From a virus (lineage: Duplodnaviria; Heunggongvirae; Uroviricota; Caudoviricetes), in IMG/VR virus record IMGVR_UViG_2703718784_000012, positions 1 through 4,738 of that record: a stretch of 4,738 nt of DNA; one strand, given 5' to 3'. The position numbers and the translations under genes were made by a program. This document shows, in pieces, positions 1,550 to 4,738 of this stretch; position 1 is the stretch's first letter, and every line of letters starts with the position of its first letter. The notes beneath the pieces were generated by a model, which did not search any database, had not been told where the DNA came from, and worked only from the letters and a program-made list of their open reading frames with translations.

Positions 1550-2182
1550 ATGCTTATCTATCCAGCGGCAGACCTCCGTTTACAGGGACGCAGAGCACAA
1601 CCATGGGATAAAACAACCACTCATAAATATCGTCCCGGTCAATATTATGACTTTCGTAAACACCCGGAACTGATCGAGACACACCTTGAGGATTTTGTTG
1701 AATATTCAGACAGACAAGCGATTCAGACCTTTTTTTCTTTTGTTAAGTGGATCAACAGCAATTCATCTGCATTCGAGAGCACGGACTGCATGTTTTCAGG
1801 AACACCAAAGGTTGATGAATACGCCCCGGTATTTGGTTGCACCCATGCGTCATCTGGCCGCTTCGAATTTTTGTTTCGCGATACGAAAATAAACCAAAAT
1901 GAGCGAGCTGTCGGATGGGTACTTAACAAACTATCGCTCTACCTTCAGAAAGAACGGCCCGATTTTTGTAAAGGAACCTTTGGCATCGTTCCCCTCATGA
2001 CGGAATATACCGACTCCGGCAGTAACGAGTTCACCGGTTATCGTATTTGTGTCTATTTCGATGCTTACGGGAATGGAACAGAGGATACCTGGACTTCTCT
2101 CAACATCATGTTTGATGGCCTCATGAAAGCCACCAAAAGAATGAGCAATGAAACAATCACTGGCGAGATGCGTCCCCTTTAA
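1550..2182 (+). CDS. Hypothetical ~210-aa protein, opposite strand to the lysis genes (moron-like cargo)
   Basis: ORF open from 1481; ATG at 1550 chosen because AGGAG (1538..1542) sits 7 nt upstream. Stop TAA 2180..2182 is followed 26 nt later by a hairpin plus T7. Sampled 60-nt blocks are about 35-45% GC versus about 55% in the endolysin. No motif I can assign. The 3' 252 nt overlap minus ORF 1931..2722 in the codon-aligned antisense frame, so one of the two may be a shadow. Confidence 0.5.
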   Translation: MLIYPAADLRLQGRRAQPWDKTTTHKYRPGQYYDFRKHPELIETHLEDFVEYSDRQAIQTFFSFVKWINSNSSAFESTDCMFSGTPKVDEYAPVFGCTHASSGRFEFLFRDTKINQNERAVGWVLNKLSLYLQKERPDFCKGTFGIVPLMTEYTDSGSNEFTGYRICVYFDAYGNGTEDTWTSLNIMFDGLMKATKRMSNETITGEMRPL

Positions 2183-2722
2183 AAAATTATCCAGAATTTC
2201 ACTATTTGCAGAGCGCTCTCTGTTTTTTTGAATACGGAAACACTCTGCGAGATTTCTGCTCATCACTTTCCGGCAATAATCGTAAAACGCCGCGAACTGC
2301 TCATCACGGCGTTTTTTTTCACCTTCGGAAGGGATCTGCACCGACAGTTTTTTATTCAGTTCAACGACGCTGTTCTCCAGTTTTTCAATGCGTGATTCGA
2401 TATCATCTTTTTCTGACTGTATCGTGTTATATGCATTGTTAATTTGTATGGTATACCGCTCTTCTGAACAAAGGCGCTTTTCCGGCAACGGTTCGTTCCC
2501 TTCACATAACCCGGCAGCAATATCCATGAAAAACTGCTTCGCCTTCTTTTTCGCCTCAGCTTCGTAAAACTCCAGCGGGGCACCTTCAACACGATCAAGA
2601 TCAATCACCACATTTGGCAACAACAGTGACGTATACCCACCAGTTTCCAGCGCCACAGTAACAGTAATCTTATCCGGGTAAATATTTATCCCTTTAACAA
2701 CCAGTTCGTATTGTTTATTCAT
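1931..2722 (-). CDS. Hypothetical 263-aa protein translationally coupled to the pinholin; central coiled-coil-like segment
   Basis: ATG 2722..2720 lies 3 nt after the holin stop TAG (2728..2726); SD GGAG at 2734..2731 with 8-nt spacer lies inside the holin 3' end. Translation MNKQYELVVKGINIYPDKITVTVALETGGYTSLLLPNVVIDLDRVEGAP..., heptad-like middle (DIESRIEKLENSVVELNKKL). The C-terminal 84 codons are antisense to the plus-strand ORF 1550..2182. No family recognised. Confidence 0.5.
   Translation of the reverse strand: MNKQYELVVKGINIYPDKITVTVALETGGYTSLLLPNVVIDLDRVEGAPLEFYEAEAKKKAKQFFMDIAAGLCEGNEPLPEKRLCSEERYTIQINNAYNTIQSEKDDIESRIEKLENSVVELNKKLSVQIPSEGEKKRRDEQFAAFYDYCRKVMSRNLAECFRIQKNRERSANSEILDNFLKGTHLASDCFIAHSFGGFHEAIKHDVERSPGILCSIPVSIEIDTNTITGELVTAGVGIFRHEGNDAKGSFTKIGPFFLKVER
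2208..2229 (+). terminator. Intrinsic-terminator-like hairpin plus T7 after the plus-strand cargo ORF
   Basis: CAGAG (2209..2213), loop CGCT, CTCTG (2218..2222), then TTTTTTT (2223..2229). Short 5-bp stem, so moderate at best. It lies inside the minus-strand 263-aa ORF. Confidence 0.4.
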
Positions 2723-3016: not shown

Positions 3017-3286
3017 TTACATCATCATTTCGCCGTCAGGCTGAGGCTCTTCACTACCGTCAGGCTGAGACCCGACGCCATCTGAAACAGCACTGTCATC
3101 CGCAATGCCTTCCGGCTCCGGAACAGTCGGTGCGCCCAGCAGTTCATCCAGAATGGCATCCACTTCTGCATCAAGACGCGCCTCAAGGTTCTGCCGAAGT
3201 TGCTGTTTCAGTGCGCTTCTGACTTCTTCAGAGCGCAGGACTTCCTTCACTGCCTCAGCAGTGACCAGCGATTTTATTTCTGACAT
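3017..3286 (-). CDS. Hypothetical 89-aa acidic helical protein
   Basis: Track ORF 3017..3439; the N-terminal extension would overlap the upstream small ORF and looks non-protein-like. Internal ATG at 3286..3284 gives MSEIKSLVTAEAVKEVLRSEEVRSALKQQLRQNLEARLDAEVDAILDELLGAPTVPEPEGIADDSAVSDGVGSQPDGSEEPQPDGEMMM; weak SD (GAGAAAA). No family recognised. Confidence 0.5.
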   Translation of the reverse strand: MSEIKSLVTAEAVKEVLRSEEVRSALKQQLRQNLEARLDAEVDAILDELLGAPTVPEPEGIADDSAVSDGVGSQPDGSEEPQPDGEMMM

Positions 3287-3311: not shown

Positions 3312-3506
3312 TTAAGAAGGTTGTTCCGGAATGAGTGGGGCTTCTGTTTTTGCTCCGGCTGACTGACTGGCGCTGATTTTCTCTGCGGCCCTTTTATCAA
3401 TCTGCCTGCGCCAGGAATCGCGCACTGCCCTGTACCCACCCGAAAGAAGATACAGCACGCATACCACCGTACAGAAGTACAGCATCACCTGATGAACAAA
3501 TGTCAT
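3312..3506 (-). CDS. Hypothetical 64-aa small membrane protein
   Basis: MTFVHQVMLYFCTVVCVLYLLSGGYRAVRDSWRRQIDKRAAEKISASQSAGAKTEAPLIPEQPS: one N-terminal TM helix then a basic tail. Weak SD. An alternative overlapping ORF (3397..3579) cannot be excluded. Confidence 0.4.
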   Translation of the reverse strand: MTFVHQVMLYFCTVVCVLYLLSGGYRAVRDSWRRQIDKRAAEKISASQSAGAKTEAPLIPEQPS

Positions 3507-3650: not shown

Positions 3651-4738
3651 TTATGCTGATTCCCGGTTTTCGTTAACTTTGACTGTGACCGTATCAAGCA
3701 GTACCGGATACGTCGCTTTTGCCCCCGTGATATCTGTCAGCGTCAGCGTATCTGCTGTAAAGCCATCATTTGTCCACATCACAAGGTCAAATGCCGTCTG
3801 CTCTGCACCATCAATCACCGGAACAACTCTTTCGCTGTTATTTCCCGCAAAGCGGAAAACAACCGTATGCCAGTTATGGTCAAACGTACCAAATGTACCC
3901 AGTTGTGCATTCGAGGAGCCCTTCTGGTGCATCAGATTAAGATTTGATGTATCCGTCTGAAGGAAGAATGATGCCAGCATACTGTTTGCTGTCGCGCCTG
4001 ACGCCCACTGCGACACCGGCCAGTAGATACCAAAGACAAACTGTCCGTTCACCAGCTCGCTTCCATCCGGAATTTTGAACCGTACGGCAATTTCCCCCCC
4101 CTTGCTGAGAAGATTTTTTGCCTCCTCCACTGCAATAGTACGGAACATTTTCCAGGACGTCAGTTTACCGGGCTGTTTTTCCAGTCGCAGCGCTTTCCGT
4201 CCACCGTCATCAGTCACAGTGCCTTTGCCGCCGGAAGCGCCCCACTGCTGCTCTGTCAATGCACCATTTCCACTGTTCGCATCATATTCAGCCACCGTCC
4301 TGGTACTGCTCACGGCCTCATCATGACCAGTACCAGCAACACCGCCATCCTGCGGTTTCTCAACATCCGGTGTCCCCGGACTGACAGGCGTTGTACCACC
4401 CGACTGCGGTGCGCTCTGCCCGGTAAGGAACGATAATGTCCGCCCGGCGTACTGCAAAATGGCACCTGCCAGGCGGTCTGAAACAAGGCCTCTTCGCGCC
4501 CATGAACTGAAGTGCGTTTTACGATCGGCTGCCGTCCAGTTACTGGCAGTGCGTGACGCAGCGCCATAGTATCCCGCCGGGATAATGTCCGGATCTTCTG
4601 ACGGCTCGTTTGTCGGCACATTCACACCATGCTCATCCGTCATCAACGGCACAAAGTGAATATTCTGCGCAGCTTTTCCTTTATACCCACCGTAAACCGC
4701 CTCATACGGCACTGCATACCTTTCCTTCCAGTAGTACG
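3651..4738 (-). CDS. Large hypothetical protein, 3' portion only (ORF continues upstream beyond the window end)
   Basis: Track ORF 3651..4712 starts at a GTG, but the frame stays open to the window edge (upstream codons read YYWKERYA), so the true start is outside. Stop TAA at 3653..3651. Has a Gly/Ser/Thr/Pro-rich linker (GQSAPQSGGTTPVSPGTPDVEKPQDGGVAGTGHDE) between two globular-looking parts. It occupies the slot upstream of the holin where Stx phages carry stx and a large esterase-like ORF, but I see no diagnostic motif. Confidence 0.7.
   Translation of the reverse strand, partial: YYWKERYAVPYEAVYGGYKGKAAQNIHFVPLMTDEHGVNVPTNEPSEDPDIIPAGYYGAASRTASNWTAADRKTHFSSWARRGLVSDRLAGAILQYAGRTLSFLTGQSAPQSGGTTPVSPGTPDVEKPQDGGVAGTGHDEAVSSTRTVAEYDANSGNGALTEQQWGASGGKGTVTDDGGRKALRLEKQPGKLTSWKMFRTIAVEEAKNLLSKGGEIAVRFKIPDGSELVNGQFVFGIYWPVSQWASGATANSMLASFFLQTDTSNLNLMHQKGSSNAQLGTFGTFDHNWHTVVFRFAGNNSERVVPVIDGAEQTAFDLVMWTNDGFTADTLTLTDITGAKATYPVLLDTVTVKVNENRESA

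Follow-up and report, generated by a model that had tools for sequence, protein, structure and literature searches.

Comparative evidence for a maintained antisense dual-coding segment in a mobile two-gene module of lambdoid phages, found in the late region of an Escherichia coli Stx-type prophage

Gene content of the late region

The 4,738-bp stretch of DNA analysed here, referred to throughout as the window, lies in the late region of a lambdoid prophage of the Stx type from E. coli, and is 99.9% identical to chromosomal prophages and 98% identical to Stx1a- and Stx2a-converting phages. On the minus strand it carries the C-terminal part (DUF6645) of the NanS-p-type 9-O-acetyl sialate esterase of Stx phages (3651-4712, continuing past the window end), DUF1378 (3312-3506), DUF826 (3017-3286), a P21-type holin S (2726-2941; PF04971, E=7e-33), a 263-aa ORF (1931-2722; ATG at 2722, stop at 1931-1933), the endolysin R (886-1419; PF00959, E=1.5e-24, and annotated as such in near-identical Stx phages) and the start of Rz (at or below 390). 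The sole convincing plus-strand ORF in the window, at 1550-2182, is situated between the endolysin and the 263-aa ORF and is here called gene A.

Approximately 500 bp (391-885) separate endolysin R from Rz, and this segment resembles a further moron-type insert in the lysis cassette. It contains two small minus-strand ORFs, one of 71 aa at 547-762 with no Pfam match and one of 47 aa at 391-534, and a strong two-way terminator-like hairpin, AAAACCCCG..CGGGGTTTT, at 763-795; in related Stx phages an antirepressor or other small genes are found at this position. A weak Rfam match to the rimP leader at 731-805 on the plus strand (25.6 bits against a gathering score of 47, E=0.49) coincides with this hairpin and is almost certainly due to chance.

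The 3' ends of gene A and the 263-aa ORF converge and share positions 1931-2182, a candidate dual-coding segment that corresponds to plus codons 128-210 with the stop and to minus codons 181-263 with the stop. The sequence-only reading had described this as a 252-bp, 84-codon overlap with coinciding codon boundaries, and the ORF coordinates (1550-2182 on the plus strand, 1931-2722 on the minus strand) bear this out; the codons coincide because both grids begin at positions 2 mod 3. It had also noted that plus codons reading as antisense stops are found only early in gene A, which is correct: TTA, CTA or TCA are located at codons 11, 53, 72, 83 and 101, codon 128 (CTA) is itself the minus stop, and there are none beyond it. 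From the Leu/Ser usage in codons 1-128, the probability of finding no antisense stop in the last 82 plus codons is approximately 0.009, so that for the window sequence alone a chance opening is, as had been proposed, possible but not expected.

The plus-strand gene

Gene A encodes a 210-aa protein of an uncharacterised family and is a moron oriented against the late operon (ATG at 1550, TAA at 2180-2182). The expression signals claimed for it were all located. A Shine-Dalgarno sequence, AGGAG, can be read at 1538-1542, 7 nt before the ATG, and an intrinsic-terminator-like hairpin, GCAGAGCGCTCTCTGT, followed by seven T residues is present at 2208-2230 (hairpin 2208-2223, T run 2224-2230), inside codons ~165-172 of the minus ORF. 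Upstream is a promoter-like block at 1427-1463, composed of TATCAGGAT (1427-1435), a spacer of ~22 nt and TATGTT (1458-1463), whose conservation was established by alignment and whose function is presumptive; it is kept in the window and in lineages L009, L010, L036 and, partly, L060, which have differing genomic contexts. A strict sigma-70 consensus scan gave no promoter for gene A; what travels with the gene is this conserved, weak promoter-like block. A near-direct repeat, GGATATTTATC / GGATTTATC, at 1420-1441 overlaps the conserved TATCAGGAT block and may be an operator-like site.

Homologues of the gene A protein with 53-65% identity are 209-219 aa in length, are full-length rather than ending well before 1931, and are found in unrelated contexts: in a decayed prophage of Salmonella with sodC as neighbour, upstream of the holin in a Salmonella phage, and in metagenomic phages with tail genes I and J on either side. 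A profile search matched 251 clusters at E<=1e-3, nearly all of 200-215 aa, with matches running end to end and the profile extending to position ~200. AF2 predicted a single alpha/beta domain with a pLDDT of 90.1 and a pTM of 0.88, in which residues 129-204, from the overlapped part, are placed in the core (pLDDT block means of 80-98 over residues 131-200). In the plus frame pN is far below pS, including in the overlap. Because of the full-length homologues, the 251 clusters and the predicted fold that takes in the overlap, gene A is real through its last codon. PGAP, in the 119 complete E. coli genomes that have the whole locus, annotates the 263-aa minus ORF alone, as do the deposited records of Stx phages; that the plus ORF might be spurious since PGAP omits it is ruled out by the same three lines of evidence. 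No match to the protein was found in Pfam, PHROG, NCBIfam, PADLOC or PDB, and its remote relatives likewise gave no hit in PADLOC, Pfam, PHROG or NCBIfam.

The minus-strand ORF

The 263-aa ORF has the Shine-Dalgarno sequence GGGGAGAG and is coupled to the holin as previously claimed, with the 3 nt ACG lying between the holin stop and the ATG. Its DUF1327/YdfR part (2232-2722) consists of a PF07041 match over residues 1-96 (2435-2722; E=7.5e-34, 116.3 bits against a cut-off of 25) and a coiled segment, conserved in the family, to F162. An alignment of DUF1327 proteins showed three alternative C-termini past ..DYC(R/I)(K/E)V, namely a short one ending in ..TRRNFVKIFEEGKSLQ followed by the stop (proteins of 169-183 aa), an unrelated domain of ~130 aa, and the type found in the window. 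In the window the family-typical C-terminus is absent, and after ..AECF162 there is instead a segment at 1931-2231 (minus residues ~164-263 and the stop), without a start of its own, that is homologous to free-standing ORFs of 89-107 aa. These ORFs and this segment, which includes the peptides SPGILCSIPVSIEIDTNTITGELVTAGVGIFR and IGPFFLK, are referred to below as the antisense partner, or gene B; among the DUF1327/YdfR members aligned, this tail is restricted to the lineage of the window.

A search with the tail alone retrieved two free-standing 104-aa proteins, P0128 (86% identity) and P0129 (76% identity), each with its own Shine-Dalgarno sequence and ATG, 63 nt past the plus stop. One of these begins 4 nt after a holin, with no DUF1327 gene present; the other has a separate DUF1327-like gene upstream, across a gap of 98 nt, and the Shine-Dalgarno sequence AGGAGG. 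Codon-by-codon homology between the window and the free-standing partner extends back to approximately residue 164-166; only the Shine-Dalgarno sequence and the first ~4 codons of the partner are replaced in the window. By homology, then, the 263-aa ORF is a chimera, with residues 1 to ~163 derived from DUF1327/YdfR and residues ~164-263 from the antisense partner, joined in frame at about residues 163-166. Five different N-termini precede the tail in E. coli, always in frame with it, in proteins of 110, 161, 263, 264 and 305 aa.

The sequence-only reading had offered two alternatives, a genuine long antisense overlap or an artefactual C-terminus, and held that minus-strand homologues ending near the border of the overlap would expose a shadow ORF. 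Most DUF1327 homologues do end before the overlap, at approximately 2213-2216, but the tail is nonetheless no shadow ORF; that test was misleading because the tail is a separate conserved ORF, free-standing elsewhere. The free-standing homologues likewise rule out that the tail is simply read-through from a DUF1327 gene whose homologues end earlier. The artefact alternative was thus right in part, the 263-aa ORF being a fusion, but neither C-terminus is artefactual; the genuine overlap is the alternative that stood, because selection acts on both frames (see below).

The 3' end of DUF1327/YdfR is a mosaic, with three unrelated C-termini following ..EQFAAFYDYC in the alignment (L051, L053, L054, L055). 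The short form provides another convergent overlap at this genomic position, a shorter one: its final ~53 nt are shared with an 86-aa ORF annotated as DUF1823 in phage PhiR12_1. Two homopolymer runs lie inside the fused minus ORF, A6 at 2181-2186 (after the plus stop) and T7 at 2224-2230; in L029 each is one base shorter and the fusion frame is broken, which could reflect sequencing error or slippage-prone sites.

The antisense partner in other phages

Partner ORFs of 89-107 aa, each with a Shine-Dalgarno sequence and an ATG, were found in L009, L010, L036, L043, L048, L049, L050, L059, L060 and L062-65. In 12 of the 14 lineages sampled no stop interrupts the partner frame opposite the last 82-98 plus codons, and down to 38% identity of the plus protein every lineage fetched except L004 keeps it open. 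The open-frame lineages include enterobacterial phages with the pair between tail genes I and J, L048, L049, L050, L060, and Pseudomonas phages and a Pseudomonas chromosome (L059, L062-66). The partner ORF ends opposite plus codon 114-132, or 114-128 once L007 is set aside. In the lineages measured its ATG lies 9-33 nt past the plus stop, with the exceptions of L007, which has an open antisense frame without a convincing start, and of the fused window copy, which is served by the Shine-Dalgarno sequence and ATG of the holin-coupled DUF1327 gene. The ATG is mostly behind a recognisable Shine-Dalgarno sequence (GGAG, GAGG or AGGAGG), often directly after a hairpin, and a hairpin at the place equivalent to the gene A terminator precedes the partner Shine-Dalgarno sequence in L036, L043, L048, L050 and L057. 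The partner always has the orientation of the late genes on either side of it (tail K/I, holin, tape-measure-like).

The commonest site of this two-gene module is from tail genes I (or K/I) to J in lambdoid siphophages of Enterobacteria and Pseudomonas (L009, L010, L036, L048, L060, L059, L062, L064). The position between holin and endolysin in the window appears, from this distribution, to be a secondary relocation.

Amino-acid conservation of the partner is weak between clades (27-55%), and AF2, given an alignment of only 4 sequences, produced a model with a pLDDT of 35. Our searches found no partner homologues outside the antisense context, and the partner and plus families are both absent from Pfam and PHROGs. 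Scans for remoter DNA loci with P0136, P0137, P0139, P0142 and P0149 found nothing, and tblastn of phage and plasmid collections added only a Nitratireductor locus.

Three relatives in which the antisense frame is closed, L004 (65% identity), L067 (33%) and L068 (27%), served as controls and show that an open frame is not imposed by the plus protein. In L004 gene A is intact and the antisense frame contains three stops, in a decayed prophage without a late operon; L004-L006 are Salmonella loci beside sodC. The reverse was seen in L055/L056 (GCA_002232215.1), where the 210-aa gene has a deletion and a frameshift and the 104-aa partner is intact. Judging from L055 and L004, each gene can outlast the decay of the other. 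On the pattern of open and closed frames, the partner looks like an overprinted addition in one sub-clade that is lost along with late transcription.

Selection on the overlap

Avoidance of the three plus codons that form antisense stops was assessed across the lineages compared. Stop-forming Leu/Ser codons (TTA, CTA, TCA) accounted for 73/194 in the N-terminal part of the plus gene against 1/128 in the overlap (Fisher p=4.5e-18), and TCA, the commonest Ser codon of the TCN family upstream of the overlap, is absent inside it. At conserved Leu/Ser columns in the overlap all synonymous codons alternate freely except those ending in A. On these lineage comparisons a chance opening of the frame across independent lineages is excluded.

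The synonymous-site analysis that had been suggested for the overlap gave a clear signal. At plus codon ~128, pS dropped from 0.84 to 0.51 in an enterobacterial clade and from 0.73 to 0.37 in a Pseudomonas clade (column-permutation p=0.0002 in each of the two), and the change was sharp. Recombination or recent shared ancestry as the cause of the lower divergence in the C-terminal part was ruled out, since pN remained flat while pS was halved. Sites that are synonymous in the plus frame and altering in the minus frame were approximately twofold less diverged in the overlap, and an OLGenie-like dNN/dNS for the partner was 0.45-0.65 there against 0.86-0.91 in the N-part control. The composition of partner first positions, read from plus third positions in the overlap, was G.34, A.29, C.21 and T.17; such a gene-like first-position composition was found in the overlap and not in the N-terminal part or in the closed lineages. 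A-ending four-fold plus codons fell from 32% to 17% in the overlap, which indicates that stop avoidance alone is insufficient as an explanation.

Of the two frames the plus frame is under the stronger constraint, because plus third positions are still more variable than first positions in the overlap. Among the closest relatives (the window, L058 and L055), substitutions in the overlap are mostly synonymous in gene A and altering in gene B. When substitutions were polarised on the L055 branch, where gene A is a pseudogene, only 11 changes could be classified, and these still looked A-synonymous; the few changes on this branch would weigh mildly against strong recent constraint on the partner. 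Judged by codon use and site divergence, both reading frames are shown to be under selection in the overlap. For a shadow ORF, conservation of start, stop and openness, or added synonymous constraint, would not be expected, and in the lineages compared these were found. The pair has the sequence features of antisense overlapping genes, namely a shared stretch of at least 90 nt, an open frame, a depressed synonymous rate and initiation signals.

Alternative explanations

The arrangement in the window might have arisen if a moron cassette had replaced the 3' end and stop codon of the DUF1327 gene, leaving a meaningless tail that is open only by permissiveness. Such a shadow ORF or stop loss would agree with the early ends of most DUF1327 homologues and of the PHROG profiles, which stop at residues 168-171, and with chance ORFs arising most easily in the codon-aligned antisense frame; in the window the partner also lacks its own start codon and a confident fold, and recent substitutions mostly alter the amino acids of the tail. 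We consider this quite improbable, since the tail ORF is free-standing with an ATG, and mostly a Shine-Dalgarno sequence, in at least ten other lineages and in other genomic contexts, and since the stop avoidance, the drop in pS exactly at the end of the partner ORF in two independent clades and the gene-like first-position composition all speak against a shadow ORF. The opposite artefact, in which the last 84 codons of the plus ORF are spurious and the true plus gene ends near codon 128, would account for the annotation of the minus ORF alone in PGAP and the Stx-phage records, but it is hardly credible and is refuted by the 200-215 aa length of the family, the placement of residues 129-204 in the predicted core and a pN far below pS in the overlap.

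A different possibility accepts translation of the partner and denies a role to its peptide: ribosomes would shield the late mRNA where it is complementary to the 3' end of the moron mRNA, protecting it from duplex formation, RNase III cleavage or polarity. The partner is always embedded in, and co-oriented with, late operons, it is weakly conserved between clades, it has no fold and no outside homologues, and gene A is the dominant constraint, all of which this explanation would accommodate. It is nevertheless unlikely, as the constraint exceeds stop codons: the A-synonymous, B-altering sites are less diverged, four-fold codons ending in A, whose antisense reading specifies Cys, Trp, Tyr or Ser in B, are depleted, and the first-position composition is protein-like; moreover, ~500 nt antisense to gene A and its promoter region would be untranslated on the late transcript regardless. 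Finally, a conserved RNA or DNA element could be responsible, such as a regulatory cis-antisense RNA, a structured 3' region or a site bound by a protein, as lowered pS alone does not distinguish coding from non-coding constraint and convergent transcription is inherent in the geometry. An RNA or DNA element of this sort is very improbable, in that it leaves unexplained the frame-specific avoidance of three codons, the conserved ATG and Shine-Dalgarno sequence at a fixed distance, the conserved stop position and the codon-position-specific composition; no Rfam family matched.

Proposed explanation

We favour, with a probability of roughly 80% as judged from comparative sequence data, the reading that the overlap is a genuine, maintained antisense dual-coding segment of a mobile two-gene module. 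In this module, gene A would be a stand-alone moron with its own promoter-like block, Shine-Dalgarno sequence and terminator, always set against the late operon, and gene B would run antisense on the codon grid of A through its last ~83 codons, with a stop opposite codon ~128. In the Stx-type prophage of the window the module would have come to lie between holin and endolysin, where recombination probably swapped the Shine-Dalgarno sequence and first ~4 codons of B for the 3' end of the upstream DUF1327/YdfR gene, so that B would now be translated as the C-terminal 100 residues of a holin-coupled 263-aa fusion.

The geometry and general lambdoid biology suggest when each gene is expressed. In a lysogen only A would be transcribed, with transcription ending at 2230. 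After induction, Q-modified polymerase from pR' would read the holin, the fused ORF, the antisense of A and then the endolysin, and B would be made only from this Q-antiterminated late transcript, which is necessarily antisense to A. Late transcription to the endolysin must cross gene A in the antisense direction, and the potential for transcriptional interference between the strands that had been pointed out earlier therefore follows from the geometry. Convergent transcription and RNA duplex formation would shut A off in lytic growth, and we infer that A and B are expressed reciprocally, in the lysogenic and lytic states respectively.

It is possible, by analogy with embedded self-immunity elements (see below), that the product of B counteracts or replaces A during the lytic growth of the phage itself, and that the overlap keeps a cognate pair inseparable; we offer this tentatively. 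Tentative too is the full picture, drawn from the same analogy, of a late-operon protein overprinted on a lysogeny-expressed moron as its cognate antagonist or switch, in a deeply conserved and horizontally mobile module. If true, co-inheritance and reciprocal expression in the lysogenic and lytic states would both be imposed by the antisense arrangement, and the module would be a protein-coding analogue of embedded self-immunity elements.

Comparison with known systems

Antisense overlapping genes are a known, contested kind (PMC7457138, PMC9927249, PMC8850804), and the A/B pair is new to it; no published description of the pair was found. Comparable antisense overlapping genes in E. coli O157:H7 include pop/ompA, laoB, ano and three in EDL933, and an overprinting origin has been proposed for them (PMC7103648, PMC5810103, PMC5960689, PMC9927249). 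As in those cases, annotation pipelines pass over a protein-coding ORF that lies antisense within an annotated gene. The O157:H7 genes rest mainly on RNA-seq, Ribo-seq and phenotypes, whereas the A/B pair has comparative support down to 38% identity of the host gene; it spans phages of Enterobacteria to Pseudomonas as a mobile cassette and has no homology to the O157:H7 genes, which are reportedly taxonomically young and restricted to Escherichia/Shigella. In Pseudomonas aeruginosa, long antisense overlapping genes are translated and under purifying selection (PMC8850804). There too the argument combines purifying selection with a frame that is open in an ORF embedded antisense, but those genes are chromosomal, with overlaps of 957 and 1536 nt, are described as evolutionarily novel and have Ribo-seq support (PMC8850804), whereas the A/B overlap is of 252 nt, in a phage moron, with an ORF conserved across host genera.

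Rz1, in the same lysis cassette, is embedded in the +1 frame of Rz, both being read from one strand, and its product joins that of Rz in a single spanin complex. This embedded dual coding shows that such phages tolerate and make use of overlapping genes; the A/B genes differ in being antisense on one codon grid. The minus ORF itself resembles DUF1327/YdfR (PF07041) of other lambdoid prophages in its residues 1-96 and in its position between holin and endolysin, and differs in that the usual members end at 169-183 aa or carry the C-terminal domain of ~130 aa. The pair does not group with type I toxin-antitoxin systems or cis-antisense RNAs: gene A is predicted to encode a soluble alpha/beta protein of 210 aa, and the antisense strand carries a conserved ORF with a Shine-Dalgarno sequence and ATG and has no Rfam match.

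Two phage systems are closer in logic. In the temperate P. aeruginosa phage Fc02, olg1 and gene 10 are a lysogen-expressed gene and a lytic-operon gene antisense to each other (PMC9936078), which is the expression logic that the A/B pair would share; the Fc02 pair, however, is in the lysis-lysogeny control region and both products give superinfection exclusion, whereas A and B are in the late region and unrelated in protein sequence to the Fc02 products. In BstA/aba, a prophage defence system, self-immunity is encoded inside the defence locus (PMC8585504). The likeness is that an element acting in the lytic cycle is embedded in a lysogeny-expressed gene and the two are inseparable, and this was the model for the speculative step above. 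The aba element, however, consists of 63 bp of DNA at the 5' end of bstA, whereas partner B is a protein-coding ORF, and gene A resembles neither BstA nor any PADLOC model and has no match in Pfam, PHROG or NCBIfam.

Significance

The omission of gene A from annotation is probably due to the long overlap on the opposite strand. Gene callers cannot report both genes, and under the overlap limit of Prodigal the two would not be called together; a family of ~250 clusters has been left out. Antisense cases proposed so far are for the most part young, limited to a single genus and backed chiefly by expression data. The A/B pair adds the type of evidence that was missing: the partner ORF keeps a start, a stop and an open frame in phages from different host genera, the synonymous-site footprint begins exactly at the partner stop codon, and lineages that have lost either gene provide natural controls. 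It is unusual in its depth of conservation, the mobility of the cassette and these built-in controls. Whether long antisense ORFs of bacteria and phages yield functional proteins is still disputed (reviewed in PMC7457138), and the A/B pair is a clean and tractable test case because it is located in inducible E. coli Stx-type prophages. As the plus gene is a moron of Shiga-toxin phages, its function may matter for the biology of the host.
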